This document shows positions 3,711 to 45,025 of a stretch of DNA of 52,618 nucleotides, in pieces. The stretch comes from a virus, in IMG/VR virus record IMGVR_UViG_3300009826_000007, positions 1-52,618 of that record. One strand, 5' to 3'. The notes below the pieces were generated by a model. The model saw only the letters and a list, made by a program, of their open reading frames with translations, had not been told where the DNA came from and did no database searches. Position 1 is the stretch's first letter; each line of letters opens with the position of its first letter. The position numbers were made by a program, and so were the translations under genes.

Positions 3711-3782
3711 TGGACTATCGCCAAACGGTAAGGCACTAGACTTTGACTCTAGTATTTGTTGGTTCGATTCCAACTAGTCCCG
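3711..3782 (+). tRNA. tRNA-Gln (anticodon UUG, 3743-3745), no encoded CCA
   Basis: - Hand-folded cloverleaf: acceptor TGGACTA/TAGTCCC with a 1:72 mismatch.
- D arm GCCA-AACGGTA-AGGC, as in E. coli tRNA-Gln.
- Anticodon arm CTAGA-CTTTGAC-TCTAG.
- T arm GTTGG-TTCGATT-CCAAC.
- Discriminator G. Confidence 0.88.
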
Positions 3783-4255: not shown

Positions 4256-4381
4256 ATGCAAAATTATTTTACAGTAAAAGATTTTAATAAAATGGAAGAG
4301 GAAAAAGAAGAGAAAATTAGGATTAAAAAGACCATTGAACAATATAACAAGGATAAAAAGTTAAAAAGGGGATTCTTTTAA
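4256..4381 (+). CDS. 41-aa K/E-rich protein, paralogous at its N-terminus to 4972..5235
   Basis: Translates as MQNYFTVKDFNKMEEEKEEKIRIKKTIEQYNKDKKLKRGFF. GAAAGG lies 7 nt upstream. It is below the track cutoff. Confidence 0.45.
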   Translation: MQNYFTVKDFNKMEEEKEEKIRIKKTIEQYNKDKKLKRGFF

Positions 4382-4399
4382 CAGAAAGGATGTGAAGGA

Positions 4400-17200: not shown

Positions 17201-20200
17201 CGTTAAACCGCAGCACCCAAGCAATGCAATTATTCATTGATTCATCGCGAGCCATAGAATATTTAAACACGTTGGTGGAGGAAAGCAACCGCCTATCGGC
17301 TGAAAGAACCGAAATATCAGGGCGCGTAGCAGAAACAGAACAACGCTTGATCCAATTAAACGAACAACAGGATCAAGGGATTAGAAACCGCAACGCGAAT
17401 CAAATTGCGCTTAGCCAGGCGATTGTAGAGGCCGAGGCAACATTGGCACGATATAATGATATGCTGGGCAATAATACCCGTTCCCAAGATGGATTAACAC
17501 AACGCATTGACGAACAAATGGGTGTTGTTGGCCGTTTGAGGCAAGAACAAAACGAATTAATCCAAACTTTGGCCAACCAACAGGCGGCCATCCAAGCGTT
17601 GGAGGGTGTGCTAAATCAATACGCGAAGGTTGTCAGTGACACGTTCAAACAAGCATCCCAAGATTCCGAGGCAAGTGCAACTTCATTGCTTAACGACTTG
17701 CGAAAAGTTAACGCCGGATTAGAAAACAGCAGACAAGAGTGGGACTTGTTTGGAATGTATATGCAGCGAATTGAAAAGTTAGCAGCAGAATTAGACGTTA
17801 GTGACGAGGTTGTCAATGAGCTTCGCGGCATGGGACTCCAAGGATTACCAATTATACAAGATTTTGTCAACGATGGCGGCGGAATGCTCGAGGAAATGGA
17901 TCAAATTTTTAAAGATATTTCCGCTAACACAGTCCAGGCAGTAGCCAGTGAATTTTCAGCACTAGGCGATACAATGGATGACGCTATGGAGTTGGCTGCA
18001 CAGGCGATACAACAAAATGCGGCCATGGAAAATTCTATGGTAGAGGCCGTTGTCCAAGCGTTTGATGCCGCCAAAGATGCTGTTAAAACCAATGATCCAG
18101 CCAGTATTGGTATGGCTTTTGGTGATGGCGCGGTTGAGGGCCTGGAAAGTACGTATGGTGATTTGCGACAATCGGGCGAGGGTGCAGTTGATGAAATTGC
18201 GGAGGGAATGGAGTCCGCCGGGCTAATACGTTCTCCATCTAAACGAACAAAGACTATTGGCGAGTTTCTTGCCGAGGGGCTTGTGCAGGGGTTAGAACCA
18301 GGTAAAACTAAATCGCGCACTGTTGCAAAAGAAATAATCGAATCCATAACGACAACACTGGAAGGTCTATCCTTGGAAGCTACGGGCCGCCAAATAATGC
18401 AAGGATTAATTAACGGTATGAACGCAAAAATGGCGGATGTCCGGCGGATAGCAGCCGAAATTAGTGCTACCGTGGAAAATACTGTCAGAACATCCATGCA
18501 AATACATTCACCATCGCGAATCATGGAACGTATAGGCAATAACATTGTTGATGGTGTTGTTGTCGGCATTGATGCACTTCGCGGGGCCGCCGTTGGCGCG
18601 GCACAAAGAATGTCGGACGGGATAAAAGATGCTGCATCCGAATGGGTGGACGATTACGCAAACGCGACAGAAATTTTGATAAAGGATGAAATCGATAAGT
18701 GGGGCAATTTCCTTAATGCCTATGATGATCAAGCACAACGACAAAAAGAAATTGATCGCCAAAATTCGTTGTTTAGGATGGAAATAAGGCAAAATGACTT
18801 TTCTAACAATAAAGAATATTTAGAAAAAATGTTGGAGTCTACAAAACTCTCTAAATCAGAAGAAATTTTTTTGTTAGAGAATTTGGCTAGACATTACCTC
18901 AAAAATTCAGATGAGCGTATTAAAATTGAAACACGGTTGAGGGATAGACAGGCCGCCCTATTGGATGAAATTCATAAAAAACAACGAGATGTAATGGCCC
19001 AAATGCGACAGGCAGAAAACGAATATACACAGGCAGTCGAAAACCGGACACAAGCACTTTCCCGCACATTTAATATGCAGCGTGAATTGTCGTTGCAAGA
19101 AACAGGGGTTGATCGCAACCGGCAAGAGGTTGAAAGATTAACCGAGGTATATGACCGGAACCGAGCAGCATTGTCAGACGTTGTAGCAGAAATGATTGCG
19201 GCACAAGTTGCGGGGGAGGATTACACTGAAATAAATGAACGGTTGCAAGCAGCCCATCGCGATGTGGCTAATTCACACACAGAATTAACAACAGCAATGG
19301 AACGGTCTACCCAATCGCAGGCAACTATTTGGGCGAACAATTTGCAAGATCAAATCGATAATATGAACGACTGGGCCAACGAAATTGACAGATTAGCGCA
19401 AAAAGGTTTGTACGAGGGTTTGGTTGAACATATGCGGCAAATGGGGCCGGAATCAGTAAACTATCTACGTGAATTAAATAACTCATCGCGTGAAGAATTG
19501 GAAAGGTTGAGCCATCTCTACCAGGAGCAACACGCCACTGCTAGAAGAGTAGCGGGCGAAGAGCTTGTCGGATTAAGACAAGACACAAATGAGAGACTAA
19601 GAGAGCTTGCGGGTGATCTTGACCGATTGGGGCAACAAGAATTTCAAGCAGGTGGGCGCAATCTATCCCGGGGTATACAAGAAGGCATTCGAAGTGAACA
19701 AACCAACGTGCAAGCAGCAGGCAGGGAAACCGTTAACACATACGCCAATGCTGTGGGTCAATCAGGATCGCAACAAATGCCACAACAGGGACAACAATTG
19801 GTATCAAATGTAGCCCAGGGCGTTAACCAGGGATCGCCGCAAATGCGCAATGCAGCCGATTCGGTGACGCGACAATTCAAGGATTCAATGCGAAACGCTC
19901 AATTTCAGGCACAGGATACGGGTTCACAACTGGCACGGGGTGTTGCTGATGGCGTTGATCGCGGAGCATGGGGGATTAGATCGGCCATGGAGGCAGCAGC
20001 GAATAGTGCAGCATTGGCAGCAATGCGAGCTTTGAAGATTCGTTCTCCATCGCGGGTCGGTATATATATCGGTGATATGTTTTCGAAAGGTATCGCGGGC
20101 GGGATTGACAAAGGCGCTAAGGCGGTAGAATATGCAGTCGAACAGATTACTGACTACATGACTGCACTTGAATATCCTAATATGGAAAATATGTATAAAA

Positions 20201-20457
20201 ATTTAGTAGATTCCAAAAAAGCCCTACAAGACCTCGACAAATTTTACTTAAAAATACCCGAGCCGTTTGTCGCAGCACAAAAAATCACACAGGAACAACA
20301 GCAAAAACCTAGCGGAACAACTTTTGACAAACTAGTTTTGCACATTCATTATGAAGGTAACCCGGAAAATTACGACATTGAGTATATTGGAAGGCAAATC
20401 GCACAAGACACTATACGCGATTTGCGAAGCAAGGGGGTAGTAGTACATGCTTATTGA
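14236..20457 (+). CDS. Tape measure protein (2,073 aa)
   Basis: Three I(R/H)SPS(K/R) motifs are present (IRSPSKRTK, IHSPSRIME, IRSPSRVGI). It also has a long hydrophobic A/I/L block and extended coiled coils. Confidence 0.93.
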   Translation: MSLLQADGSVIIGTELDTQNVETSMNKLGTKIKTWAAGAAAAWAALNVAVIATGDAFDAPMGTIQAQTGMADEAIAQLGYRFRDLSQLGTHSATEIATAFTKVATQGRTVEESYKLMSYAQTLANATSFELKQSTEFLGLALMKTGADVSKSQSYIDTFSQVVASSGMSLGNLQKAVITLAPTMNASGKSIEYMGGTLATLYRGGLYGVAAGRGLEQIFNQLTGPSDAAAAAMDRLGISMFDSTGAVRPLNDVLLEAMDALDDVATEQERINLAQDLFSTVYARAVFDELKNNRDAWQENIKLMYEAGDAFDGMGQAWGMAETAGLGFSTSLGSIGHALQDVFISLWHVKEGAKVALLDTIGEGLWVLARMLRSDGELHGAVLAFGAINEVVFNALIVLLRGVIDIVVFLIRAMDFGSAMATLQPLQGAIGNLFDAFSNLITAVGNFITALIGISDSNAPSFLSQLLEVIVTLITAGIEIAINKLNLLRETLGFMTQAVRNTSFDAGLLGDLFKALSNVIGTLVSAFGNLLSIIGGAIINAIWDFSKGLDSGVTLGGILNTVIGALITILDIFSNAIEAINRILSGALPQAFDAIIQLVKSLASGFLGLGEHLPTFLNVITQVASVVGGAVLLAFEALVNIAVFLLDTLNLLYPVVAILAAKFIKVKVVSKIVTMFNALNIGMMANKVSMVALSSKLALFKKGVIASFVPLTTFTGKLTTASKTTGIFSMALGKAKAALTATTALFVKIAGPIAIAVTAIVFFTDAFSNLHPMVGAVTVALAAFIASFQLLNASTTTVTAVKTAFTTLYATIKAFKLAPLIGYFTALFATMKTSVATVGLLNTVLHGLSVAYMAVKKAAIKFKAVLLANPFVLAAAAVTALVVAIGYLIKRNMTATEGYEDLAAISREAAQAQQEFERNVEQASHAVNDNIRAIDEQAARNQYLTDTIVSLANEQNRTVGETVRMNRYIDELNQAIPGLNLAFDETENSLNRSTQAMQLFIDSSRAIEYLNTLVEESNRLSAERTEISGRVAETEQRLIQLNEQQDQGIRNRNANQIALSQAIVEAEATLARYNDMLGNNTRSQDGLTQRIDEQMGVVGRLRQEQNELIQTLANQQAAIQALEGVLNQYAKVVSDTFKQASQDSEASATSLLNDLRKVNAGLENSRQEWDLFGMYMQRIEKLAAELDVSDEVVNELRGMGLQGLPIIQDFVNDGGGMLEEMDQIFKDISANTVQAVASEFSALGDTMDDAMELAAQAIQQNAAMENSMVEAVVQAFDAAKDAVKTNDPASIGMAFGDGAVEGLESTYGDLRQSGEGAVDEIAEGMESAGLIRSPSKRTKTIGEFLAEGLVQGLEPGKTKSRTVAKEIIESITTTLEGLSLEATGRQIMQGLINGMNAKMADVRRIAAEISATVENTVRTSMQIHSPSRIMERIGNNIVDGVVVGIDALRGAAVGAAQRMSDGIKDAASEWVDDYANATEILIKDEIDKWGNFLNAYDDQAQRQKEIDRQNSLFRMEIRQNDFSNNKEYLEKMLESTKLSKSEEIFLLENLARHYLKNSDERIKIETRLRDRQAALLDEIHKKQRDVMAQMRQAENEYTQAVENRTQALSRTFNMQRELSLQETGVDRNRQEVERLTEVYDRNRAALSDVVAEMIAAQVAGEDYTEINERLQAAHRDVANSHTELTTAMERSTQSQATIWANNLQDQIDNMNDWANEIDRLAQKGLYEGLVEHMRQMGPESVNYLRELNNSSREELERLSHLYQEQHATARRVAGEELVGLRQDTNERLRELAGDLDRLGQQEFQAGGRNLSRGIQEGIRSEQTNVQAAGRETVNTYANAVGQSGSQQMPQQGQQLVSNVAQGVNQGSPQMRNAADSVTRQFKDSMRNAQFQAQDTGSQLARGVADGVDRGAWGIRSAMEAAANSAALAAMRALKIRSPSRVGIYIGDMFSKGIAGGIDKGAKAVEYAVEQITDYMTALEYPNMENMYKNLVDSKKALQDLDKFYLKIPEPFVAAQKITQEQQQKPSGTTFDKLVLHIHYEGNPENYDIEYIGRQIAQDTIRDLRSKGVVVHAY

Positions 20458-24972: not shown

Positions 24973-25446
24973 ATGGATGAACAAATGCCCGAACATACAG
25001 GAATAGAAATTCAGGTAATTCCCATTGATGACAATGGTTTTGTGATTTGGGATTCGGAAAAATATTGCTATAAAGATTCATCATATAAACCATTGCCAAA
25101 TGAAATAACCACACCGATACCAACAAATGTTAATTGGTATCAACCTCGCTGGGATGGCATACAGTGGGTGGAGGGCAAAGACCACCCTGGACTTCCTGTA
25201 ATATCTCCCGATCCAAATTTACCAATGGCAGAAATGCCCAAAGACGGCATATACTGGATAACCGACCCCGAAAAACCTCATACGATGGAAGAAATATTAG
25301 ATTACGTCATGAATGCCGAAATATCTGTAGATGATATTATTTTAAATAAACAATATTTCGCTGATACCCGCATGATACCAATATTACTCAAAAAAATACA
25401 ATTGTTGGCTAGGCGTGTAAGTGATTTAGAAAATGCAGGGAGGTAA
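24973..25446 (+). CDS. Hypothetical (tail-fibre accessory position)
   Basis: 157 aa with AAGGAG upstream. Confidence 0.6.
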   Translation: MDEQMPEHTGIEIQVIPIDDNGFVIWDSEKYCYKDSSYKPLPNEITTPIPTNVNWYQPRWDGIQWVEGKDHPGLPVISPDPNLPMAEMPKDGIYWITDPEKPHTMEEILDYVMNAEISVDDIILNKQYFADTRMIPILLKKIQLLARRVSDLENAGR

Positions 25447-25450
25447 TCAA

Positions 25451-26239
25451 TTGCGTAAAATATTTATAGACCCGGGACATGGCGGACATGACCCCGGCGC
25501 GGTTGCTAACGGAATGCGTGAAGCGGATATAGTTTTAGAAATAGGATTATATCTCAATGAAATTTTAAAAGCTAGTGGACTCGACACGCGCATGTCCCGC
25601 GAGAGCAATATATCACCACAACAGCGCTGGCAGATTGCAAACCAATGGGGCGCGGATATGCTTGTATCGATTCATGTGAACGCTGGTAGTGGTACAGGTG
25701 TAGAAACGCTAATACCGACAGCCTCACCAAATAATCCAAGACGCGATTTAGCCTCTAACCGTAGACTCGCAGAGCAAATGTCGTTTGACATTGGACAGCG
25801 ATTTGGTATGCGCTTGCGCCGTGCGAATGGCGTCATGTTGGAAACTGAAACCCGACACCCATTTGTCGGCGTTTTGCGTAACAGTAATATGTTGGCAGTT
25901 TTGCCAGAAATTGCTTTCATAGACAGTCCACCACAAAACCCAGATGTTAATGTATTACGCAATATGCGCCGTGAGGTTGCAGAAACACTGGCAGGAACAA
26001 TTTTAAGTTGGTATAATATTCCAATGCGTACAGCTTTGCAACCCACACCGGAACATCCATTTATTGATGTGCCGCGTGACCATTGGTCTACTGAATCTTT
26101 GCGCGAGCTTCACACACGGGGCATTATTAATGGTAGCGCCCCCGGCATTTTGGGCGGGTTTGGGCAACCAATGCCCACGGAACGCGTAGCGGCCATGATG
26201 TGGAATATGATTAGGTACTTAGAGGGAAAGAGGGAGTAG
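25451..26239 (+). CDS. Endolysin: N-acetylmuramoyl-L-alanine amidase (Amidase_3-like) with a C-terminal SLH-like domain
   Basis: IFIDPGHGGHDPGAV and SIHVNAG are amidase_3 hallmarks. FIDVPRDHWSTESLRELHTRGIINGS...TERVAAMMWNM resembles an S-layer-homology domain. The start is TTG 25451 after GGGAGG (track start 25433). Confidence 0.88.
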   Translation: MRKIFIDPGHGGHDPGAVANGMREADIVLEIGLYLNEILKASGLDTRMSRESNISPQQRWQIANQWGADMLVSIHVNAGSGTGVETLIPTASPNNPRRDLASNRRLAEQMSFDIGQRFGMRLRRANGVMLETETRHPFVGVLRNSNMLAVLPEIAFIDSPPQNPDVNVLRNMRREVAETLAGTILSWYNIPMRTALQPTPEHPFIDVPRDHWSTESLRELHTRGIINGSAPGILGGFGQPMPTERVAAMMWNMIRYLEGKRE

Positions 26240-26779: not shown

Positions 26780-28015
26780 ATGATTGTAGTAACCAAATTA
26801 TATCATACAACTTTAGTGTTAATAGGTACTATATTGTTAATCATGTATATAACAGTCCTTTTGGGCTATAGAGGGTTTTTAATTTTAGGTGACATTTATA
26901 TTCCTTATAACATAGATATATTGATAACAACTAGTTTGTTTATGGTAAAATTCTACATGTTAGCGGGAATATTTTGGAATAAATTTAGTAAATCATTAAT
27001 ATTGTGGGTATCTCCATACATTTTAATTTTTGCGATTAGTTCTTTCTATTTCAACATTAGTATATTAACTGTAATTGTATTACCTGTTTTATATTGGGTT
27101 GTTATAACTATTTATTTGGGTAGTTGGAAAGGTAGAATTAAACGCATACTTTCAGCAGTAGTAATATATTGCGGATTCACAATCGCGATTAATTGGATAA
27201 AGACTAATATTTTTTTTGCGGGTCTAAATGATCAAATAACTTTGTATCAAATGTTGGTACTTTCAATTAATTCTATTGTCATCTTAATAATTTTATATGG
27301 AAAGGAGTGGATTATAAATGAAAGAGGCAACACATCCAAGAACGCCATGGAAACCGCTTTTTCCGACCTCGGAACGGTTGAGTCATGCAGTTATGTCGAT
27401 AGTAAAAGTTTTCAGGAAATTCAAAATTTAGTCGGTTGGGAACGTGCGATTGCGGCAATTGTTTGGATTAGTCTACAAATGTTGTCATGGATTGTCATAT
27501 TGGTTGTAATTAAAATTATCAGCAACGTATTTTGGGAAGCGTTAATTATTTCAATTGCCTATGCTGCATACGGCTATACTGTCCGATATAGAATGCATTT
27601 TAAATGGTGTACGCTTGCGAGTGGTGTTATTTTTTTTGTGGCGGCAAGGCTAGTACCGTCTATCCACTATACCCCATTTATACCCGTTTTACTTGCTCTG
27701 TTTTTGGTCTATGGGTCGTTTCGAATTGCATTGCATTTTAACAATTACAACGAATTAGAGGCGCGATTAGCAATTGTTAATGAAACCATAGCAAAATGGC
27801 ATACATTTACATTACAAAAACACTGCGACTATGCGCAAATGAAAAAAGTAGCGGAATCGAAGGGCATGACATCAAAACAAATTAGAATATTAAAATTATA
27901 TTACTGCGATGCAGCAAATTGGGCGCAAATTAACATTGCAATGGCTCCGTGGTCTGAATCTACAACACGAAAATTTTTAAAACAGGCTAAAACGGACTTC
28001 GAAGCACATCCTTAA
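26780..28015 (+). CDS. Polytopic membrane protein with a C-terminal HTH-like tail (cargo gene)
   Basis: 411 aa with roughly nine hydrophobic segments and a very AT-rich sequence. The C-terminus MTSKQIRILKLYYCDAANWAQINIAMAPWSESTTRKFLKQAK resembles a sigma region-4/LuxR-type HTH. Confidence 0.7.
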   Translation: MIVVTKLYHTTLVLIGTILLIMYITVLLGYRGFLILGDIYIPYNIDILITTSLFMVKFYMLAGIFWNKFSKSLILWVSPYILIFAISSFYFNISILTVIVLPVLYWVVITIYLGSWKGRIKRILSAVVIYCGFTIAINWIKTNIFFAGLNDQITLYQMLVLSINSIVILIILYGKEWIINERGNTSKNAMETAFSDLGTVESCSYVDSKSFQEIQNLVGWERAIAAIVWISLQMLSWIVILVVIKIISNVFWEALIISIAYAAYGYTVRYRMHFKWCTLASGVIFFVAARLVPSIHYTPFIPVLLALFLVYGSFRIALHFNNYNELEARLAIVNETIAKWHTFTLQKHCDYAQMKKVAESKGMTSKQIRILKLYYCDAANWAQINIAMAPWSESTTRKFLKQAKTDFEAHP

Positions 28016-28033
28016 TGGGATGTGCTTTTTTTT
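28004..28033 (+). terminator. Rho-independent terminator
   Basis: gcacatcc-ttaatg-ggatgtgc followed by T8. It overlaps the stop codon of 26780..28015. Confidence 0.8.
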
Positions 28034-28107
28034 ATGTGTGTTTTAAATCAAATTAAAAATTATAAAAAAGGCTCTGCATTCTATAATCCAAAGCAGGAGG
28101 TGATTGT

Positions 28108-28311
28108 GTGCATAAAATAAATGGTTTACTCCAGCAACATGAAAATTGGTTAAACAGTTTAGAAATTAAAGGAACCCCCGAGTCAATGTTACGCCAATGG
28201 GACACAATATTAGGCCAAATGGAGCGCAATTTAACTATGCGAGAAATGATAGCGAACACGTTAAACATGAATCGCGGAATGCATGAGGGTCGTCCGGGCA
28301 GGGGGGAATAA
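28108..28311 (+). CDS. Hypothetical (67 aa)
   Basis: GTG start after AGGAGG. A TATAAT lies at 28082-28087 upstream. Confidence 0.55.
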   Translation: MHKINGLLQQHENWLNSLEIKGTPESMLRQWDTILGQMERNLTMREMIANTLNMNRGMHEGRPGRGE

Positions 28312-28313
28312 TT

Positions 28314-28580
28314 ATGGCTAAACGCCGTGGATGGCACCCCCCGGGTATAGGATCAAAAGCCCGCCGAAATATGCCGCGTTCTGCATTTTTAGTACCGTCA
28401 CAGCGCAAATATCCATATAAAACAAAACGCGGTGGACGGTGGGTGGCATCCGAACGTGGTTTGATGGCGGCCTATAAACGTGCCAAACAACAACATAATG
28501 AACCTGTTGCAGCCGCTGCATTACGTAAACTTAACCCCATACGCAAAGGCAAGGGCAAAGAAACCCTACCGCTACATTAA
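28314..28580 (+). CDS. Small highly basic protein (88 aa)
   Basis: GGGGGG upstream and K/R-rich throughout. Confidence 0.6.
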   Translation: MAKRRGWHPPGIGSKARRNMPRSAFLVPSQRKYPYKTKRGGRWVASERGLMAAYKRAKQQHNEPVAAAALRKLNPIRKGKGKETLPLH

Positions 28581-28595
28581 ATAAAAGGAGTTCCA

Positions 28596-29273
28596 ATGTC
28601 TAATTACCAAGCTATATCGCCGCAAGGCCAATACTACCAGGCTCCGTATTTTCAATCACAAGGCCAATATTACCAACCACAGGCGCAACCGATAGATCCC
28701 TATTCCGCGCAAGCAGAATATTGGCGGTCTGTTCGTGATCAATACGGCCAACCGTTTACACAGCAAAATTATCAAATGCCAGTCCAACAGCAAATACAAC
28801 CACAGCAACCACAACAACGACAGCAAACACCTATGGGGCAAATATTCGCCTATCCGGTGACAAATATAGATGAGGCGAAGGGAATGCGAATTGATGCATT
28901 TAACACATTTATATTTGACGACCCTAGCGCTGAAAAAATTTATAAAAAGAAAATAAATAATGACGGTTTGCCCGTTTTTCAAACTTATATTCTTGAAAAT
29001 GTGCAACCGACTACACAACCGACAGAACAGTCTGAAAATACGACACCGCCGGACACGGTCGCAATACATCGAACCGACTTGAATAAAATTGAAGCACTCA
29101 TAAATCGAATTACTACATTAGAACAATTTTGCAAGGAGATTAGAGACAATGGAAATAATGCAACTGATAAATTCACTTCGACAGACGAACAATCCCCAGG
29201 CACTTCTACAGCAATTATCTATGCAAGACCCAACAATAGCGAAGGCAATGCAAATGACACAGGGCAAGAATAA
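28596..29273 (+). CDS. Protein with a Q/Y/P-rich (prion-like composition) N-terminal region
   Basis: AAGGAG RBS. By my count 27 of the first 84 residues are Gln. The 3' 125 nt overlap ORF 29149..29361. Confidence 0.6.
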   Translation: MSNYQAISPQGQYYQAPYFQSQGQYYQPQAQPIDPYSAQAEYWRSVRDQYGQPFTQQNYQMPVQQQIQPQQPQQRQQTPMGQIFAYPVTNIDEAKGMRIDAFNTFIFDDPSAEKIYKKKINNDGLPVFQTYILENVQPTTQPTEQSENTTPPDTVAIHRTDLNKIEALINRITTLEQFCKEIRDNGNNATDKFTSTDEQSPGTSTAIIYARPNNSEGNANDTGQE

Positions 29274-29361
29274 TCAGCAGATAATGGAATTGGCTGAAAA
29301 TTTATCACAAAACATGTACGGTATGCCCTTGGCGCAATATCGACAACAAATTGGTGTTTAG
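29149..29361 (+). CDS. Hypothetical (70 aa), overlapping the previous ORF in another frame
   Basis: AAGGAG lies 10 nt upstream. The sequence looks helical and Q-rich. Confidence 0.45.
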   Translation: MEIMQLINSLRQTNNPQALLQQLSMQDPTIAKAMQMTQGKNNQQIMELAENLSQNMYGMPLAQYRQQIGV

Positions 29362-29370
29362 CGCTTATTC

Positions 29371-29463
29371 GGTTAGTTGCTAATGTTAAACAACCAACCT
29401 TGATCTTGATCCTTGCCCGATCTTGATCCTTGAAGGTTAGTTGTTAATGTTAATTAGCCAACC
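29371..29463 (+). promoter_or_regulatory. Composite element: hairpin - four GATC sites - homologous hairpin
   Basis: ggttagttg-N11-caaccaacc lies at 29371-29399. gatcttgatccttg occurs twice, placing GATC at 29402, 29408, 29419 and 29425. ggttagttg-N13-gccaacc lies at 29435-29463. Confidence 0.6.
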
Positions 29464-29521
29464 AAAGCGATTCACATAGTAATTTTTTAACCCTGTATCC
29501 CTAGAAGAAGGAGGAATTTTA

Positions 29522-29894
29522 ATGGGTGGAATGTTAGGTAATACGGAATTTGTATCGTCCGGCGGCGGCGGTTTTGGTAGCCACAATGACGGATGGCTAG
29601 GAATGTTATTGGTTATCGCATTGTTAGGCGGACGCGGCGGATTTTTTGGTCATGGTGACAATGGCGGCGTTGGTGACATCGAACGTATGCAGTTAATGAT
29701 GAATGACAATAACAACATTCGTTTTAACCAATTGGCCGGTGAAATTGGCGCGGTTGAGTCACGCGGCCAAATTGGTCAATTGCGAAACGACATGGACAGC
29801 GGCTTTAGAGGTCTTGCGCGTGAAGTTGGACAGCTTGGAGTGCAGAACCTTTTGACTGCGAAAGATGCACAAATTGCCAATTTGGAGTGCTGCT
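29522..29894 (+). CDS. Exon 1 of the intron-split gene (Gly-rich membrane-anchored protein, unknown function)
   Basis: GAAGGAGG RBS. The ORF runs into intron sequence and stops at 29915. The proposed 5' splice site is after T29894, which forms a U-G pair in a 6-bp P1 (29890-29895 with 29903-29908). Confidence 0.6.
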
Positions 29895-30937
29895 TAACTT
29901 GTAGGCAGGCGGCGTAGTAATACGCCGATTAATGTACTGGGTGAATTGCTGGAAAACTAAATATACATTACTTTGACGGCATAGATTATTTGCTGTACAA
30001 TACATGTAAAATATGACATTTAGGAGGCTTTATGTTTTATGTGTATGAGTGTTTTATAAAAGATTCGGGCGAAATAATCTATGTTGGGAAGGGTTCAAAA
30101 AAACGATATAAAGCCAAAAAGAAAAATAAGTTGTTAAATGAGTTTCTTAACCGTTTTGACTGTGATGTTAGAATCATAGAGTATTTTGACAATGAGCTAG
30201 ATGCATTTGAAAAAGAAGCAAAGCGTGTGCATGAATTGAAAAACATTGGACAGTGTGTTTGTAATAATCATAGGGGTGGTTTCGGCGGTTGTAGTTATAT
30301 TTGGAATGACGAAAGACGTAAAAAGGCATCCGAAAATAATGGAATGAAACACGCCGAACAAAGAAAACGTATGTCAATATGCAATCCAATGAAAGACCCG
30401 GTAATTGCTGCAAAATCAGGTGCAGAGCATAAACGCGCCATTGTGTTAGATAATAAATATTATGCGAGCCAAATAGATGCAGCAGCGATAATTAATGTTA
30501 GTACTAATACCATATTAACGTGGTTAAAACGGGGCTACAACTCCAAGGGGAAAGCATGTTATTATGCAGATACCCCGCGCAATGCTAAAGATGTAAAACT
30601 CAAAACAACTAATTCAAAACAAGTTATAGTTGATGGAAAAATATTTGATTCTGTAAGAAGTGCTGCAAAATTTATTGAATGCGCTCCAGAAACTATAATT
30701 AGAAACATAAAAAACAATCGGCTTTGTAAAGGTTTTAAATGTATATATGTCAACCAGCAGCCAAGTTAGGTGAATTCGATAAAAGTAGCCTAAAAGGTTC
30801 AACGACTAATGCTTGCGGACGAACACCAATAATAGCGACACGAGCGCCCAGCCCCTAAATTTAGGGTGAAGATATAGTCTGGACTTATGGGAAACCATAA
30901 GAAGTAGTGGATAAAGAGCCACTACGATAACAAAACG
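29895..30937 (+). mobile_element. Group I intron (IA-like) carrying a GIY-YIG homing endonuclease ORF in a peripheral loop
   Basis: - P-like element aattgctggaaaa at 29944-29956.
- R-like element gttcaacgactaatg at 30797-30811.
- S-like element aagatatagtctggac at 30869-30884.
- GNRA-capped hairpins at 29911-29926 (GTAA) and 30884-30901 (GAAA).
- A further hairpin at 30904-30925.
- The exact boundaries are inferred. Confidence 0.8.
30032..30769 (+). CDS. GIY-YIG homing endonuclease
   Basis: N-terminus MFYVYECF...GEIIYVGKGSKKRY...AFEKEAKRVHELK. NUMOD/IENR-like HTH repeats are present (ASQIDAAAIINVSTNTILTWLKRG; DSVRSAAKFIECAPETIIRNIKNN). TAGGAGG RBS. Confidence 0.85.
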   Translation: MFYVYECFIKDSGEIIYVGKGSKKRYKAKKKNKLLNEFLNRFDCDVRIIEYFDNELDAFEKEAKRVHELKNIGQCVCNNHRGGFGGCSYIWNDERRKKASENNGMKHAEQRKRMSICNPMKDPVIAAKSGAEHKRAIVLDNKYYASQIDAAAIINVSTNTILTWLKRGYNSKGKACYYADTPRNAKDVKLKTTNSKQVIVDGKIFDSVRSAAKFIECAPETIIRNIKNNRLCKGFKCIYVNQQPS

Positions 30938-31299
30938 GCAAAACAAACAGTAACATCGATCAACTACGTTTCAATATGTCCGAGGGTTTTTGTTCCGTTA
31001 ACTTTAATGGCGAACGCAATACAAATGCAATCGTCCAGGCTGTTAACGCTGCATCCCAACGACAAATCGACTGGTTGACCGCCAACGAATTGAAAGAGGT
31101 ATACGCTGAAAATGCAAGGCTAAACGGTCGGATCAATACTGCTGAAATTGTTAATACAATTACCAGCAATCTTCAACCGCCACGCCCGGTTCCCTCGTAT
31201 GCGGCATCCAATCCATACGAGAATTTTATAGCACCTGTACGCGTGGTAGCCCCCCCGCATTTAGCGCAACAGCACCACGGTTGCTTTAATAATGGTTAA
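30938..31299 (+). CDS. Exon 2 of the intron-split gene
   Basis: The frame is open from 30931. NIDQLRFNMSEGF repeats the exon-1 block QIGQLRNDMDSGF. Joining T29894 to GC30938-39 keeps the frame and gives 244 aa in total. An alternative 3' site lies after G30958. Confidence 0.6.
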
Positions 31300-31324
31300 A
31301 ATGGAATAAAATAAAAGTTGCTGG

Positions 31325-31372
31325 TTTGGGGCGTGGGTGTCTGCCGCCCCCAAGCCTGACTTTTCAAATTTT
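31325..31372 (+). terminator. Terminator-like GC hairpin after the split gene
   Basis: tttggggcg...cgcccccaa followed by gcctgacttttcaaattttt. Confidence 0.5.
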
Positions 31373-31389
31373 TGAAAGGTGGACTTAAA

Positions 31390-31866
31390 ATGAGCATCCC
31401 CGATTTACGATTTTTAAAAGATTTAGATATAACGGTCGTACCAGGTACATCGTTATTTATTACCGTACAGGATTTTACCCCGGTTAATCGCCAATTTTAT
31501 ACATTATGGATTGGCCAATTTTTGCCGGAGGTAGTCGGCACAGAGCAGGTATTTATTCAACAACTTGGGTCATTAATAAATGTTCCATTAATTGACAGAT
31601 TTGGAAATATAGTTAGAGCTGGCCAATTGCGAGGTGCAAGGGTGGTACATGAACATCCGTGTCATTTACGCCCGGCACGTTATCGCCTGACATACGGTTC
31701 TGATACGTTACCAACGGGTGCAGCCCCGGTATTTACGGTTTGGGAAGGTTTGGCAGATTTTATCTATAACGGCGCTGCTGCATTATCCACTGACCCGGGG
31801 GCGGGGGGCGCAATCGCACCGCTTACGGCCAAAGTTTCTTTAAAAGTGGATGACAAATCCAAATAG
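31390..31866 (+). CDS. Hypothetical (158 aa)
   Basis: AAAGGTGG precedes ATG 31390. The track start is 31372. Confidence 0.6.
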   Translation: MSIPDLRFLKDLDITVVPGTSLFITVQDFTPVNRQFYTLWIGQFLPEVVGTEQVFIQQLGSLINVPLIDRFGNIVRAGQLRGARVVHEHPCHLRPARYRLTYGSDTLPTGAAPVFTVWEGLADFIYNGAAALSTDPGAGGAIAPLTAKVSLKVDDKSK

Positions 31867-32026
31867 TAAAGATAATATTGCGTGGGCAACGCTGGTTGCT
31901 ACCGTCATGAATTTGGATGTTAATATACAAATTTTGAATATCAGCCAGCAACGCCTGCAAACTGCTAACCATCAAACACAAATATTAGAACAAATATTCG
32001 AGGAGTTGAAAAACAAAAATGGATGA
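31850..32026 (+). CDS. 58-aa hypothetical (below track cutoff)
   Basis: Translates as MTNPNSKDNIAWATLVATVMNLDVNIQILNISQQRLQ... It overlaps both neighbours by a few nt. Confidence 0.4.
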   Translation: MTNPNSKDNIAWATLVATVMNLDVNIQILNISQQRLQTANHQTQILEQIFEELKNKNG

Positions 32027-32702
32027 GTTAAATGTCGAGGGCAAACACGGCAAAAGTGCATATGGTCATGAGGCCACTGCGCCAATGATGGAGGATATGG
32101 AACACGTTGGCGAACATGCTGGCCCACGTGCTATGACCAAAGAAAATTGGAAGGCTTCCATAGCAGAAATTGCTCCGATTTTAGATAGAATACACACATA
32201 TTTGATATGTGGATATATGTGGCATGGACGCGCTGCCAATGAATGCCGCAGATTTCGCATACGAGGCATGGGACGCTGGCATGAGGCCGAGGCGTTATCA
32301 GACGCTAATTGTCATATTAATTTGATGAAATTATTTCAGGATAATTTATGGTATTCGCCCGTCACCAATTGGGAACATGTCAAGGGCGATAATGAATTTA
32401 CAATTGATTCTTTGACTGATTTTCAACAGCATTTTGTTGTATGGATGCAGCGCGAGGCACATTTGATTGATGCACTAAACGAGGCCATTCATATGATGAG
32501 GGCGATAGATATATCCACATATAAACATTTGTTATGCGCACTAGAGGAAGTACAAAACGAGTCTATGCGGGCGCGTTGGGTATATGAAAATTTCAAACTT
32601 GCTGATTGGGAAGGTCATCACCTGCTCCGCAGTAGCAAAGATTTACACCAATACTTTGAATTTGACTACAAGGGCGGTTTGATTGATTTTAATATAGGTT
32701 AA
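32019..32702 (+). CDS. Hypothetical His/Trp-rich helical protein (227 aa)
   Basis: GAGGAG RBS. It is the last rightward gene. Confidence 0.65.
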   Translation: MDELNVEGKHGKSAYGHEATAPMMEDMEHVGEHAGPRAMTKENWKASIAEIAPILDRIHTYLICGYMWHGRAANECRRFRIRGMGRWHEAEALSDANCHINLMKLFQDNLWYSPVTNWEHVKGDNEFTIDSLTDFQQHFVVWMQREAHLIDALNEAIHMMRAIDISTYKHLLCALEEVQNESMRARWVYENFKLADWEGHHLLRSSKDLHQYFEFDYKGGLIDFNIG

Positions 32703-32750
32703 CCGTAAAATGAATAAAAAAAGCCCCAGGTTGCACCCCAGGGCATTTGT

Positions 32751-32996
32751 TTATGAAGTTTGGTCGGCCAATCGTTTTGCGCGTCCATATTCGAATTCTG
32801 GACAATTTTGCACTGTAAAAGATTCGATAGAATAATGTTTAATATGCGCCCCATATCCCAATGTAACATTTATTGGGGCGTATATTGCTGTCCATCCATC
32901 TACTGGCCTAAAATATCTGTGCCAGTCGCAGCCCAACGCGTGAGCATTTGCGCATTCCCAACAAATTGTTAATATTTTCCCTGGTTTCCCTGCCAT
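32751..32996 (-). CDS. Cys-rich small protein (81 aa)
   Basis: ICWECANAHALGC...QNCPEF. It is the last gene of the leftward array. Confidence 0.55.
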   Translation of the reverse strand: MAGKPGKILTICWECANAHALGCDWHRYFRPVDGWTAIYAPINVTLGYGAHIKHYSIESFTVQNCPEFEYGRAKRLADQTS

Positions 32997-33466
32997 TCGG
33001 TATCACCTTGATCCTTGTTTTCGTATTCATTATACAATTGGTTTAGCTTTTCCGAAAAATATTTTATAAAAAAAGCAATGTCATCGGCGTTAGGTTTATA
33101 TACATATTTGTTGCTACCGTTGTAGTCATCAAACAATATAATCGCTTGTGTATTTGATACTTCTACATCTTGAAAATGCTTCCCTACATGTTCGATTTTT
33201 ACAATTTCGTTGTATGCATCTTTTGCTTTTTCCAAAAATTTTTTTATTGCTATCTTGTCAGCCATGTTTGTCTTCCCCGTTTCAATGGTTGGTGCATCGT
33301 CTATCGCGTCCGCAATTTCATACATCATCAATGTGCTATAACTATATTCGCGGTGGTGACTGTCCTTATGCCCGGATTTAACAGCATCTGACAGTTTGTA
33401 ATGTCTACCGCAAAACAACGAGGCACAAAATAAGGCATCTGCATCAATTAATCGCATTATTCCCAT
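32969..33466 (-). CDS. Hypothetical (165 aa)
   Basis: Begins MGIMRLIDADAL... and lies downstream of int. Confidence 0.6.
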   Translation of the reverse strand: MGIMRLIDADALFCASLFCGRHYKLSDAVKSGHKDSHHREYSYSTLMMYEIADAIDDAPTIETGKTNMADKIAIKKFLEKAKDAYNEIVKIEHVGKHFQDVEVSNTQAIILFDDYNGSNKYVYKPNADDIAFFIKYFSEKLNQLYNEYENKDQGDTEWQGNQGKY

Positions 33467-33471
33467 ACCTT

Positions 33472-34581
33472 TCAGAAATTCACAACACGCTGTATAAACT
33501 TTTCCATTTTGATCCCGGATTCTTTTTGCATTCGTTCCGTCACATGCCCATAGGTATCCAATGTAAACGCCACAGAATGATGTCCCAAGCTTTCCGCAAT
33601 TGTTTTTATGTCTACCCCAGCTTGTATGGCAGAAACGGCATAACTATGGCGTAAATCATGGAAGCGCATAGAGGAATAGCCAATTTTCTCAACTATTTTT
33701 TTAAAATTTCGTTGTACAGTAACAGGCGTGAAGTGTTTGCCGTTTTTGTCTGTAAACACAAAACCCTCTTGTCTGATTCCCAAAACACTAAGTTTTTTTA
33801 TAACATAAGGAGCCATTGTTACCCACCTTGATTTGCCACTTTTCGGCAAAATCAGCTTATAATTAGCGCCTTTTTCAATAGGTTTTTGTAACTGTTTACT
33901 AATATTTATACGCCCATCCGAAAAATTTATACAATTCCACGTTAGCCCCAAAACTTCTCCTAAGCGCATACCAGTAAATAATGTCACAACAAAAAGAGTT
34001 TCAAGTTGGTGGCCCTCTATTTCATTTAAAAATGTAAAAATTTGAGTGTCGTCTAAAAACTGCATTTCTTTTTTTGTATTTTTTGGCAAAACACAAGCGT
34101 CTGTCGGGTTTGTTCTGATATACCCAATATTAACCGCCTGGCCTAATGATTTGCCTAATACCGAATGGACAAGTTTTACTGACCTATCTGACAAACCCTT
34201 TTCGCGCAAATTATTATAAAATTGCTGTATCATGCCGGGGGTAAGAAGCGCAAGCCTGACAGCGCCTAAAACTGGTATAATATGATTGCGGCAATTATTT
34301 TCGTAAATGCGAGCGGTAGCGGGTTTTACTGACACGATATAATCTTTTATCCACATATTAATCCATGCCCCAATGGTTAATTTTGACGGGCTAATAAATG
34401 TTCCATCGTCAATCGAAGCTATAATCTGTGTCAACTTTTGACGAACCTCTTTTTGTGTCTTGCCATAAATGGATTTTTGGATTTGTTTACCTGTTCCCGG
34501 GTCGCGTCCTACAGTGTAGCGAGCTTCCCAGTTTCCGTTTTTTCGTTGGCGTATGCTTCCCGCGCCCTGCATATTACGCAT
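33472..34581 (-). CDS. int: Tyrosine recombinase / phage integrase
   Basis: The arm-binding-like N-terminus reads GSIRQRKNGNWEARYTVGRDPGTGKQ. Catalytic residues are in GMRLGEVLGL, HDLRHSYAV, GHHSVAFTLDTYGHV. The likely start is ATG 34581 (track start 34626). Confidence 0.92.
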   Translation of the reverse strand: MRNMQGAGSIRQRKNGNWEARYTVGRDPGTGKQIQKSIYGKTQKEVRQKLTQIIASIDDGTFISPSKLTIGAWINMWIKDYIVSVKPATARIYENNCRNHIIPVLGAVRLALLTPGMIQQFYNNLREKGLSDRSVKLVHSVLGKSLGQAVNIGYIRTNPTDACVLPKNTKKEMQFLDDTQIFTFLNEIEGHQLETLFVVTLFTGMRLGEVLGLTWNCINFSDGRINISKQLQKPIEKGANYKLILPKSGKSRWVTMAPYVIKKLSVLGIRQEGFVFTDKNGKHFTPVTVQRNFKKIVEKIGYSSMRFHDLRHSYAVSAIQAGVDIKTIAESLGHHSVAFTLDTYGHVTERMQKESGIKMEKFIQRVVNF

Positions 34582-34834
34582 TATTATCATTCTCCATTGC
34601 AATTTTATCCATAACAACCGCAACATCTAAAATTACATCATCAAACGGGCGTATTACCCCATTGTCATCATACAACCTAACCCCGATTCTGTTTACGGCG
34701 GTTTTTATTTTTTCAGTTGCGCTTGAACCGTCAATAAAAGCCCAATCTATGTCTTTGTTTTCAAATTCTTTTTCTAAATCAACACATCTGTCCACCAAAT
34801 GTTTTCTAAAATTAGTAATATCATCATGTGTCAT
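34574..34834 (-). CDS. Hypothetical acidic protein (86 aa)
   Basis: ORF immediately upstream of int. Confidence 0.5.
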   Translation of the reverse strand: MTHDDITNFRKHLVDRCVDLEKEFENKDIDWAFIDGSSATEKIKTAVNRIGVRLYDDNGVIRPFDDVILDVAVVMDKIAMENDNNA

Positions 34835-35581: not shown

Positions 35582-36574
35582 CTATGCCTTTTTGCTCATC
35601 TGGTTGTATGCCGCCAAATAACCCTTTGCGTTAGCAAAAATATCATCCTCAAAATATGCATCACCTATCATTCCGGTGTCTAAAATATATTTTTTTAATG
35701 CTATTGCACCACCGCCAACAAAAATTGTATAATCTTCGCGTAAGTCAATACCCTGTTGAGATACCGCTGCTAGTAGCTTCACGGTTAATTTTTGTGTGAG
35801 ATCAAAAACAAGTGCCTGTCGCTCGTTTGAGCAGCCATTTAGGGATTTGGCCTTTTTCTGAATAATGCCCTCAATGTTGCTATCCGTCATTCTTTTCCCT
35901 ATTTTTGCGTTAATTCGGCTGTTTACCTCGTCCAACAATATATTAACGCCAATGTACAGGGATTCCACTATGTCTGGTTGTCCGTTATTAATTCGTATGC
36001 AATCCACAGTGTAACCGCCTATGTCTACAATGTTTACAGTGTCACGACTGTCAACAATAGCCCATAGGTGGTTTAATGCTGTTGTGGCAACGCCCTGGGG
36101 ATAGACATGCACGTTGGTGATTTTTATAATCATGGGTGTATCGTTAATACGAAAACTAATTTGCTTGCCTTCACGTTGGAAATATTTTGCAAATTTTGCG
36201 CCGATTTCCTTTTTGTGCATTGGCGGTACCCCAACCAACAAATCAATTTCAACATATCCATCCTGCACCATTTCCTTATAACAATTCAAATCGGCTAAAA
36301 CTTGCTTCCCGATGGCAAACAATGTCAACAAAAAATAATCATCATCGGCGGTCTTGTCATCTTTTTGGTAAAATCGGCAGTCTACTAACGTGTATTCTTT
36401 GCCATTAAAATCTAATCTATCGCCGCCATGACTGCCCTGGATGGTGCTATCAATAAAACTGGATGCAAAATTAATACAAATCAATTTGCCTTTTTCCCCG
36501 GGCAAGCTGGTTGACAATGCGCTACACGACTTTGTGCCTCTATTGCCGTGGTCTATTGCTACTATTTTTTTCAT
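35582..36574 (-). CDS. ParM/Alp-family actin-like segregation ATPase
   Basis: Actin-fold motifs are AIDHGNRGTK (phosphate 1), VDIGGYTVD (phosphate 2) and FVGGGA (adenosine). Confidence 0.8.
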   Translation of the reverse strand: MKKIVAIDHGNRGTKSCSALSTSLPGEKGKLICINFASSFIDSTIQGSHGGDRLDFNGKEYTLVDCRFYQKDDKTADDDYFLLTLFAIGKQVLADLNCYKEMVQDGYVEIDLLVGVPPMHKKEIGAKFAKYFQREGKQISFRINDTPMIIKITNVHVYPQGVATTALNHLWAIVDSRDTVNIVDIGGYTVDCIRINNGQPDIVESLYIGVNILLDEVNSRINAKIGKRMTDSNIEGIIQKKAKSLNGCSNERQALVFDLTQKLTVKLLAAVSQQGIDLREDYTIFVGGGAIALKKYILDTGMIGDAYFEDDIFANAKGYLAAYNQMSKKA

Positions 36575-37835: not shown

Positions 37836-37963
37836 TTTTTCAACCTGTCGAGCTGCTCAAAATGTGTATGCGGTTCTGAAAACGATTTGCATTTTTCGCA
37901 TTTAGTCATTCCGCGCAATGCCATTTTTTTAGCATAGCAGATTAAATCTTCAATTCTTTTCAT
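37832..37963 (-). CDS. 43-aa protein coupled between the methyltransferase and beta-helix genes
   Basis: Translates as MKRIEDLICYAKKMALRGMTKCEKCKSFSEPHTHFEQLDRLKK. There are ATGA overlaps at both ends. Confidence 0.5.
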   Translation of the reverse strand: MKRIEDLICYAKKMALRGMTKCEKCKSFSEPHTHFEQLDRLKK

Positions 37964-44035: not shown

Positions 44036-45025
44036 TTAATATTGCCCAATAATCCCATTTGCTTTTAATGCTGCGAAAATTCGGACTAAGGAACCCTTGA
44101 AGCCTATAACATCGTCCGGGTCATGCTCGCCTGTTAACCTTTTTGTTTCGCGTAACTCGTCCCGGATTTCTTTGGCGATGTCTAATTCGAACCGCACGCC
44201 CCGGAATATATCTTCTTTGAGTTTTTGTATTGCCTGTTCACAGTTTATTTCCGTCATTTTGATGTGCATTTTTGCGCCCTCGCGAATGTTGGCTATTTCT
44301 TCGTCTTTGGCAGATAATTCTGCTTCAAATTTTTTGTTGTTGGCTACAATTTCCGCATTGCGATCTATTCTATTTGTATCGTGTAGACGGCTGATTCTAT
44401 TACTTATTTCGGTTCTGCGATCCATCGTCTCTTTAATTCGCGCATTTTCTGCCTTCAACTCACGGATTTCGGCCTCTTGGCGCTCGATCAATCCCTCACA
44501 TCCAATGATTTCGGGTGCAGGCGTGTTATCATTTAATTGTCTAACGCCATTTTTATATATTGTGAGTTCAACTGGTTTTTTCGATTGCATGGTTTTGTCT
44601 GGCAAAAATTTGTATTGAATCCATTTGTCGTTGCCACCAATTTCACAATTGCCGCCTGCTGTATTAATCACCGACGCGTTGCCGGTTATTTTAGAATCCC
44701 AAATTTCCGATTCGTGGACAGCTGCAGAATTGTCAACAGTTGTGTTGATTATTGATGTATTTTTTGCAATAAATGCACAACCGTAAACCATAGAATCGCT
44801 ATCCAACCACGCGTTATATCGCAAATTGGCATCAATTTGAATCCAACCGCCCATTTCCCCGGTTTTAACAATCACGTTTTTATTTTCAAATGATTTTATG
44901 CAATGTATTTGTCGCAATCTTATTTTTGCCAGCCCCCCTGTAATTTTACAGGGGATTGACACTATTTTTGTTTCGCCCGTATAATCCCAGGTTATTCCTC
45001 TGTTTGATTTTTGCATTTTCGCCAT
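44036..45025 (-). CDS. Beta-helix N-domain protein, paralog 3, with a C-terminal coiled coil
   Basis: MAKMQKSNRGITWDYTGETK...IHCIKSFENKNVIVKTGEMGGWIQ, followed by a long charged helical region. Confidence 0.75.
   Translation of the reverse strand: MAKMQKSNRGITWDYTGETKIVSIPCKITGGLAKIRLRQIHCIKSFENKNVIVKTGEMGGWIQIDANLRYNAWLDSDSMVYGCAFIAKNTSIINTTVDNSAAVHESEIWDSKITGNASVINTAGGNCEIGGNDKWIQYKFLPDKTMQSKKPVELTIYKNGVRQLNDNTPAPEIIGCEGLIERQEAEIRELKAENARIKETMDRRTEISNRISRLHDTNRIDRNAEIVANNKKFEAELSAKDEEIANIREGAKMHIKMTEINCEQAIQKLKEDIFRGVRFELDIAKEIRDELRETKRLTGEHDPDDVIGFKGSLVRIFAALKANGIIGQY

Follow-up and report, generated by a model that had tools for sequence, protein, structure and literature searches.

The stretch of DNA analyzed here, referred to below as the window, is the complete 52,618-nt contig of the IMG/VR virus record IMGVR_UViG_3300009826_000007, and our subject is a gene for a 244-amino-acid (aa) protein that is interrupted in it by a segment with its own GIY-YIG homing endonuclease gene. 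The locus holds a group I RNA core, an exact exon junction and an intact endonuclease gene with its catalytic residues, and the insertion recurs at the same site in other phages. We regard 29895-30937 as very probably a mobile self-splicing group I intron of the phage-type IA kind, with exactly these boundaries. Its parts, with the evidence that places each of them, are the following:

29522..29894, plus strand: exon 1, codons 1-124 and the first base of codon 125 (list of open reading frames (ORFs), uninterrupted homologues, blastn against the intron-less locus L001)
29895..30937, plus strand: group I intron, 1,043 nt (Rfam RF00028, homologue junction, covariation, composition)
30032..30769, plus strand: homing endonuclease ORF, 245 aa (PHROG 314, invariant residues, AlphaFold2, Foldseek, profile match)
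30937, plus strand: terminal guanosine (omega-G), followed by the 3' splice site (L001 alignment restarts at 30938)
30938..31299, plus strand: exon 2, which completes codon 125 with its second and third base and adds 119 codons and a stop (fused frame, homologues, blastn against L001)

The two flanking ORFs are, as read from their sequence and that of their homologues, one gene. The first (29522-29917, 131 aa) meets a stop codon just within the proposed intron, and the frame of the second (30976-31299) is open upstream as far as 30931. Joining T29894 to G30938 creates the cysteine codon T/GC, keeps the reading frame and yields the 244-aa protein, which reads ...LECCCKTNSNIDQLRF... across the junction; the predicted ligated junction joins the exon-1 end ...GAGTGCTGCT to the exon-2 start GCAAAACAAAC. 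A search of the fused protein against 5.8 billion proteins recovered ten homologues, several of them full length, and the best of these (P0001, 233 aa) is 74% identical at 100% coverage. Intron-less homologues, which the earlier note had proposed to look for, are thus available and match across the junction: they have ALECCCKTNSNIDQLRF where the splice yields NLECCCKTNSNIDQLRF, and more widely ...AQISALECCCKTNSNIDQLRFDMS... against the splice-predicted ...AQIANLECCCKTNSNIDQLRFNMS.... At the DNA level the intron-less locus L001 aligns with the window through exon 1 and restarts exactly at 30938, with 17 identical bases around the junction (TGCTGCAAAACAAACAG), and the CCCK codons are reproduced solely by the T29894/G30938 junction. 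The intron is inserted directly after the first base of codon 125, the codon for the third Cys in the conserved motif CCC(K/E)TNxNID. Searches of the fused protein against viral contigs and genome contigs returned zero matches. A block of exon 1 that recurs in exon 2 (QIGQLRNDMDSGF versus NIDQLRFNMSEGF, 7/13 identical) had previously been offered as evidence for a single gene; the repeat is a true internal repeat of the family, because some homologues have two or three copies of CCCxTNxNIDxLRF, but alone it is insufficient to prove that the gene is one.

The host protein matches phrog_16490, a family of no known function (E = 7e-11, residues 14-203), and finds no family match in Pfam or NCBIfam. 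The exon 1 product is Gly-rich at its N-terminus, continues with a hydrophobic helix (WLGMLLVIALLGG) and ends in the first part of a long helix. This layout holds in the alignment of the family, where the Gly-rich N-terminus and a single hydrophobic helix are followed by a long helical stretch with 1-3 CCCxTNxNIDxLRF repeats and by a conserved LQPPRPVPAY...NPYE tail, often with a Cys/Gly-rich end. The structure predicted for P0001, taken as a stand-in for the spliced protein, has a short helix at 24-35 and a long helix at 87-191 at a predicted local distance difference test (pLDDT) score of 49, a model that we judged too poor for a fold search. The earlier note had taken the presence of an intron as an argument that the gene is conserved and important. 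The intron does lie in the most conserved motif of the family, but introns are documented in many kinds of genes; its position indicates that the motif is constrained and says nothing of the role of the protein. Homing endonucleases typically target conserved motifs.

The intervening sequence, with a G+C content of 36% as against 47% in the exons, can be laid out as a complete set of paired (P) and joining (J) segments, all on the plus strand. The percentages of paired cells and the counts of pairs changed on both sides refer to an alignment of 30 related introns described below:

29890-29895 / 29903-29908: P1, 6 bp, CUGCUU / AGGCAG; the U29894-G29904 wobble marks the 5' splice site
29903-29908: internal guide sequence
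29899..29902: 5' strand of P10, UUGU, pairing with the exon-2 start GCAA at 30938-30941; 4 bp including U-G at the first exon base
29910-29916 / 29921-29927: P2 hairpin, 7 bp, GUAA tetraloop
29937-29943 / 30845-30851: P3, CUGGGUG / CGCCCAG; 95% of cells paired, 5/7 pairs changed on both sides
29944..29952: J3/4 AAU and the P4 5' strand UGCUGG at 29947-29952 (P element)
29961-29969 / 30738-30746: P5, 9 bp, AUAUACAUU / AAUGUAUAU; closes a 768-nt loop with the endonuclease gene
30754..30759: P4 3' strand CCAGCA (Q element)
30760-30761 / 30797-30798: P6; G30760-U30798 and C30761-G30797 canonical
30766-30770 / 30789-30793: P6a, UUAGG / CCUAA; 5/5 pairs changed on both sides
30799..30808: J6/7 and the P7 5' strand GACUA at 30804-30808 (R element); invariant in the 30 introns
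30804-30808 / 30875-30879: P7 pairing, with UAGUC as its 3' strand
30810-30813 / 30834-30837: P7.1; 97% paired
30817-30818 / 30826-30827: P7.2, enclosed by P7.1
30853-30857 / 30862-30866: P8 hairpin, CCCUA / UAGGG; 64% of aligned cells paired
30867..30879: J8/7 UGAAGAUA and the P7 3' strand UAGUC (S element)
30884-30890 / 30895-30901: P9 hairpin, 7 bp, GAAA tetraloop; 100% and 87% paired, 6/7 pairs changed on both sides
30904-30910 / 30919-30925: P9.1 hairpin, 7 bp, conserved AUAAAGAG loop; 7/7 pairs changed on both sides

Every helix of the window copy is canonical, and the pseudoknotted P3/P7 core is supported by covariation. The sequence elements by which the intron was originally recognized are all present where they had been placed, namely the P element aattgctggaaaa at 29944-29956, the R element gttcaacgactaatg at 30797-30811 and the S element aagatatagtctggac at 30869-30884, as are the two GNRA-capped hairpins (GUAA-capped at 29910-29927 and GAAA-capped at 30884-30901). 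The location of P7.1 and P7.2 between P7 and the 3' strand of P3 places the element in subgroup IA, and by these sequence features it is a phage-type group I intron of that subgroup, the level at which the assignment is made.

Among covariance models, Rfam RF00028 (Intron_gpI) gives its sole match in the window at 30666-30901, with a score of 48.6 bits (E = 5e-11 in a local scan, 2e-9 over the whole window), and the well-aligned part of the match extends from the 3' strand of P4 to P9. The scan that the earlier note had called for therefore returned a match, but one below the gathering cut-off of 50 bits, so that it surfaces in E-value mode; at the gathering threshold Rfam reports a tRNA alone in the whole window. 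We attribute the low score to the 0.77-kb insert in P5, which makes the model align its 5' half with ORF sequence, the true 5' half lying 0.8 kb upstream. Among introns at this insertion site, ORF-less ones reach 97.4 bits (L080) and 93.4 bits (L025), and the ORF-bearing L014 reaches 61.1 bits. Phage introns with a ribozyme split by an endonuclease loop have proved equally hard elsewhere, one side having gone undetected in 10 cases (PMC11878797).

To obtain comparative evidence we scanned viral contigs for the P6-P7 signature, which gave 73 loci, and built alignments of the core from these. In a MAFFT alignment of 49 non-identical introns P3, P4, P6a, P7.1, P7.2, P9 and P9.1 are nearly always paired while their sequences swap. 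In the alignment of 30 introns (A5) 89.3% of the cells are paired as against 66.8 +/- 0.8% in shuffles, and 37 of the 50 core pairs have changed on both sides, in a count in which the outer P6 pair was scored one column off and hence stands at 0% paired in its row. The covariation score of 0.572 compares with 0.161 in shuffles (0/500 as high) and with at most 0.135 when the partners are slid by 1-3 columns. P7.1 and P7.2 together have 6/6 pairs changed on both sides; the lower value for P8 reflects the variable length of this hairpin among the relatives. P4 is GCUGG/CCAGC in most introns and swapped for CGGU/ACCG in others, and GUAA-capped P2 hairpins with other stem sequences are also found in L003, L014 and L025. 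P7, J8/7 and J6/7 of the window are identical to the consensus of the 30 relatives. Even P5, whose strands are separated by the ORF, is favored by the comparison: in 17 ORF-bearing introns the own strands pair with a mean of -8.9 kcal/mol, versus -4.2 +/- 2.6 for mismatched partners. Three further places in the window match the J8/7-P7 motif GAAGATATAGTCTG with 2 mismatches (34415-34428, 37938-37951 and 44202-44215), which makes 4 matches in all against 0.14 expected. We rejected these three as further introns, as all of them break P7 and have no covariance-model support; they are probably effects of chance or composition.

The splice sites proposed earlier, 29894/29895 and 30937/30938, hold up by the U-G wobble in P1, the terminal G and the frame matched by the homologues. 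P1 itself is GCUGCU/GGCAGC in same-site relatives and the compensated GCUGUU/GACAGC in Clostridium phage CPQ4. The 3' site had been presented as the weakest part of the proposal, on the ground that no P10 pairing supports it. A 4-bp P10 does exist, between 29899-29902 and 30938-30941, at the same position as in same-site relatives, where it comprises 4-6 bp and covaries with the respective exon-2 starts: GUUUCA/UGAAAC in L014, GUAUC/GAUAC in L037, UCUCAU/GUGAGA in L043, GUUUC/GAAAC in L080 and UCAU/GUGA in L025. The 3' boundary is accordingly supported in two ways, by the P10 pairing and by homology.

The same insertion is present in other phages. The gene of this family in Clostridium phage CPQ4 (MZ401006, L003 1487-3149) is interrupted one base into the third Cys codon (SSC/CCETNRNID), whereas the gene CPD1_039 of phage CPD1 (MH999280, L009 3827-4444) is an uninterrupted allele. 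The CPQ4 intron shares with that of the window the insertion point, an ORF in the P5 loop, an endonuclease that is 47% identical over its full length and ~76% DNA identity between the 3' terminus of the ORF and the end of the intron. It differs in P1, P2, P3 and P6a, which are altered by compensated changes, in distant exon proteins (27.5% identity between the window protein and CPD1_039) and in neighborhood, the CPQ4 gene adjoining a KilA-like gene and the window gene following lysis genes. In its GenBank entry exon 1 and the endonuclease appear as separate hypothetical proteins, and exon 2 (~2850-3149) is left without a coding sequence (CDS). The closest homologue of the endonuclease (56% identical) comes from a gut-metagenome locus, L084, with the same gene interrupted at the same site. 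A host-gene homologue adjoins the intron in 25 of the 73 motif-selected viral contigs, and the junction lies at the same codon in the inspected L014, L023, L025, L037, L043, L074 and L080; L057 agrees with these in its guide sequence and 5' exon end, with an exon 2 that departs from the motif. Conversely, host-gene homologues in 20 deposited phage records align in one piece across the site, which implies that they have no intron there. Related ribozymes are also found in other genes, such as those for the tape-measure protein of phiCP13O and the portal protein of Streptococcus suis phiJH1301-1.

One of those 20 records, bajarodcaudo virus 2 (PQ006093, L008 ~2408-2661), has its member of the family split elsewhere, at the start of the hydrophobic helix (GAW/WIIIFV), by an ORF-less intron of ~255 nt with a similar P9 region and an RF00028 score of 26.9 bits. 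We consider this likely, on its sequence features, to be a second intron site in the host-gene family, less certain than the first. Two small minus-strand CDSs annotated at this place are probably spurious.

The P5 loop of related introns is occupied by ORFs of several kinds, with DUF2726 genes in L004 and L052, an HNH gene with many CxxC repeats in L012, an ORF with only zinc-finger-like matches in L035 and a canonical GIY-YIG gene with NUMOD3 in L045, while the introns of L025, L079 and L080 are ORF-less. With unrelated ORFs in the same loop, endonuclease genes seem to have been exchanged repeatedly. L015 and L053 each bear the intron signature twice, ~1.6 kb apart, and RF00028 matches L029 at two places (4320-4556 and 6452-6697), so that some phage genes or operons may contain two introns.

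The endonuclease ORF, which the earlier note had described as free-standing in the intervening sequence, is indeed there, and its position can be stated more specifically: it lies within the terminal loop of P5, its last codons overlapping the 3' strand of P5, J5/4, the 3' strand of P4 and the start of P6. The protein matches PHROG 314 'homing endonuclease' (E = 4e-12), a group with GIY-YIG, NUMOD3 and I-TevI DNA-binding signatures (PMC11878797), and has 474 homologous clusters at E <= 1e-5. The GIY...YIG...R...E...N pattern is represented by YVY at residues 3-5 and YVG at 17-19, followed by R25, E62 and N78; in 41 homologues Y3, Y5, Y17, G19, K20, G21, R25, E62 and N78 are invariant, and V18 is nearly so. 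Beyond the GIY-YIG domain there are NPMK/NPM repeats resembling NUMOD3 and two repeated helix-turn-helix-like units. The AlphaFold2 model has a pLDDT of 86.8, and in a Foldseek search of BFVD its top matches are GIY-YIG or intron-associated endonucleases (best E 6e-12, 216 matches at E <= 1e-3). Among PDB structures Foldseek matched 9u75 (PD-T4-3, probability 0.97-0.99), which we regard as a nuclease with a GIY-YIG domain, as well as I-TevI (1i3j) and I-HmuI (1u3e) in their DNA-binding domains; the family profile also matched 1i3j at E = 0.0023. Sequence-level matches are faint: Pfam recovered the I-TevI DNA-binding domain (PF20987) at 3.5e-4, LEM-3 GIY-YIG at 0.05 and NUMOD1 at 0.065, TIGR01453 'group I intron endonuclease' matched at E = 0.0065, below the family cut-off, and phmmer found no match in PDB. 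The general GIY-YIG model PF01541 is matched by 2 of 8 close relatives (E = 2.6e-5). By fold and motifs we accept the protein as a homing endonuclease of the I-TevI-like GIY-YIG type with predicted activity, an identification that derives from the invariant catalytic residues and the structure matches and not from the weak Pfam score.

Several observations weigh against a functional intron of this kind. The window copy lies 1.4 bits under the RF00028 cut-off, and the 5' part alone (29880-30040) finds no group I match in Rfam. The 8-nt duplex of P10 folds at -2.1 kcal/mol, with 4 bp including a G-U. PF01541 does not match the window protein in the Pfam scan, and hhalign of the family against I-TevI (whose sequence we confirmed to be that of the ORF located within td in T-even phages) aligned the DNA-binding part alone, at 11.5% probability. 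Splicing itself we infer from sequence, and the activity and target of the endonuclease and the use of an internal promoter are likewise predictions.

The score, the weak P10 and the inferred splicing would also fit a decayed intron, which has lost the ability to splice and leaves the host gene inactivated, with the 131-aa exon-1 product alone being made. We consider this very unlikely, as the core helices are all intact and canonical, P7, J8/7 and J6/7 have not departed from the consensus, the U-G pair and the terminal G are both present, both exon frames are open and match homologues end to end, and the endonuclease retains all its invariant residues. Alternatively, there might be no intron at all, but two independent small genes flanking a free-standing endonuclease gene, with core-like motifs arising by chance; this is how gene callers and the CPQ4 GenBank annotation present the pieces, as separate ORFs. 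Set against that, the covariance-model match at E = 2e-9, the strong covariation in 30 introns, the full-length uninterrupted homologues that cross the junction and the lack of a start codon or ribosome-binding site for exon 2 at 30938, where homology begins, render it exceedingly improbable. A 3' splice after G30958, which had been named as an alternative and likewise preserves the frame, is for practical purposes excluded, as it would delete CKTNSNID, the most conserved motif of the family, while homology to intron-less DNA restarts at 30938 and related introns end 4-6 nt past GAUAACA, as at 30937. The original interpretation, a group I intron with a GIY-YIG homing endonuclease splitting a single 244-aa gene, is hence upheld by the covariance match, covariation and homologues.

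On this intron reading, the gene would be transcribed together with the intron, whose RNA would fold into P1-P10. An external guanosine would attack after U29894, held in P1 by the guide at 29903-29908, upon which the freed exon-1 end would attack after G30937, with the short P10 aligning exon 2, and the ligated mRNA would be translated into the full membrane-anchored long-helix protein. The gene in the P5 loop would provide an I-TevI-like GIY-YIG endonuclease, translated independently and possibly transcribed from a promoter of its own. During mixed infection or in a lysogen, alleles of the gene that have no intron would be cleaved by this enzyme close to the CCC-coding site, and repair would copy the intron into them, i.e. 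homing.

Two candidate expression signals precede the endonuclease gene:

29973..30001, plus strand: predicted promoter-like site TTGACG-17-TACAAT, upstream of the endonuclease gene
30022..30027, plus strand: ribosome-binding site AGGAGG, 4 nt before the endonuclease ATG

The promoter-like site is the best match to a sigma-70-like consensus in 28000-33000. Similar sites are found in the same place in CPQ4/L003 (TTGACT-17-TATAAT), in the L016 group and in L068, and none was found there in L014, L023 and L043; a promoter dedicated to the endonuclease gene is plausible from these sequences, though not as a general property of the relatives. A hairpin is predicted over the ATG (30001-30016 with 30029-30045, z = -2.5). 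A pairing of the ribosome-binding site with aaagtagccta at 30782-30794, which had been suggested previously, turns out to be unremarkable: its -10.7 kcal/mol is ~1.5 standard deviations better than the average window of the intron (mean -6.7 +/- 2.7, best -14.6), and it is not the strongest partner. Given this energy, and as the segment is needed for P6a, we do not consider the pairing a feature.

As a whole the window looks like a temperate siphovirus-type phage or prophage, with the following landmarks:

5219: terminase
6498: portal
14236-20457: 2,073-aa ORF of tape-measure size, after the head and tail genes
25433-26239: endolysin
33472-34626, minus strand: integrase

The split gene lies between the lysis genes and the integrase, in agreement with the post-lysis placement given earlier. 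Deposited phages gave zero blastn matches to the terminase and portal region, and the window has no DNA-level resemblance to any of them. The host gene is apparently part of a small conserved cassette (window 28596-29361 and 31372-31866; L008 1455-2226; L003 3238-3615), in which a Q/N-rich protein of ~180-225 aa and a helical protein of ~70-80 aa are followed by the split gene and a protein of ~125-165 aa with the shared motif ...R(A/G)(D/G)Q(I/L)R...RY.(I/L).YG.D; the similarity of the cassettes was judged by eye, and Pfam, PHROG and NCBIfam give a function for none of the cassette proteins. Close to the integrase the minus strand encodes an actin-like segregation protein of the ParM/Alp7A type (35582-36574); the prophage may persist like a plasmid besides integrating. 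Upstream of the terminase genes there is a tRNA gene (3711-3782, 59 bits). Two AT-rich tracts (2040-2150 and 2930-3002) contain degenerate ATATAC/ATGTAT repeats and draw spurious mir-297 matches; between them lie a 28-nt inverted repeat (~2433-2494) and a C-rich run (2581-2630). This area (~2040-3002) could be an origin or packaging region.

The practical consequence of recognizing the intron is that the 244-aa protein, which gene finders mis-call as two or three ORFs, is restored, and the same annotation fix is applicable to dozens of phage and metagenome contigs. The membrane-protein family of phrog_16490 thereby joins the phage genes colonized by group I introns, and its CCC(K/E)TNxNID motif marks a constrained part of the protein that offers a handle for its study. 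The intron lineage is also widespread, a single motif having retrieved 73 viral contigs, and its P5 loop accepts GIY-YIG, HNH and DUF2726 genes. It is conceivable, but in our estimate very unlikely, that the intron is more than a passenger: splicing efficiency might gate expression of the membrane protein, the promoter-like site of the intron might drive the endonuclease and exon 2 independently, and the family might be a preferred, repeatedly colonized target. If the last were true, the two sites and the related P5-loop cores with GIY-YIG, HNH, DUF2726 or no ORF would hint at an essential conserved function in phages of clostridia-like gut bacteria.

Known examples of such elements are the T4 td intron with I-TevI, the lysin intron of Streptococcus thermophilus and the introns of Staphylococcus phage Twort. 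Like T4 td, the window intron encodes a separately translated GIY-YIG enzyme, whose catalytic domain is N-terminal and is joined by a linker to a helix-turn-helix DNA-binding domain at the C-terminus. However, the catalytic domains of the two enzymes have no detectable sequence similarity, the zinc finger of I-TevI is not seen in the window endonuclease, and td has its ORF in P6a instead of P5. Translation of I-TevI is controlled by concealment of its ribosome-binding site, to which the hairpin predicted over the ATG in the window bears no more than a loose analogy. The closer parallel is with the IA introns of Firmicutes phages (S. thermophilus, Staphylococcus Twort/K-like and Bacillus prophages), which likewise have P7.1/P7.2 between P7 and the 3' strand of P3. 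A blastn search with the region matched 223 phage records over 75-180 nt of P7-P9.1, including 126 from Staphylococcus, 63 from Streptococcus and 17 from Bacillus, with Clostridium also represented. Many of these Firmicutes phage IA introns have a ribozyme interrupted by a homing-endonuclease loop, and the IA2 subgroup is heterogeneous (PMC11878797). Group I introns have been documented in the tape measure, terminase, tail tube and lysin genes of phages and prophages, sometimes at several sites of one gene (PMC2504315), and their association in such genes with GIY-YIG, HNH or other endonucleases is well documented (PMC2504315, PMC11878797). The window intron differs from those of Firmicutes phages in its host, a phrog_16490 membrane protein gene, as opposed to lysin, tape measure, terminase, polymerase and nucleotide-metabolism genes. 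In the literature we did not find an intron described in this gene family or in Clostridium perfringens phages. As a selfish element of a well-known kind, it would work like documented phage introns and leaves the understanding of how they work unchanged; its novelty lies in the gene family that it occupies, in the repeated and unannotated insertion at one codon of that family across many phages, and in the probable second site.

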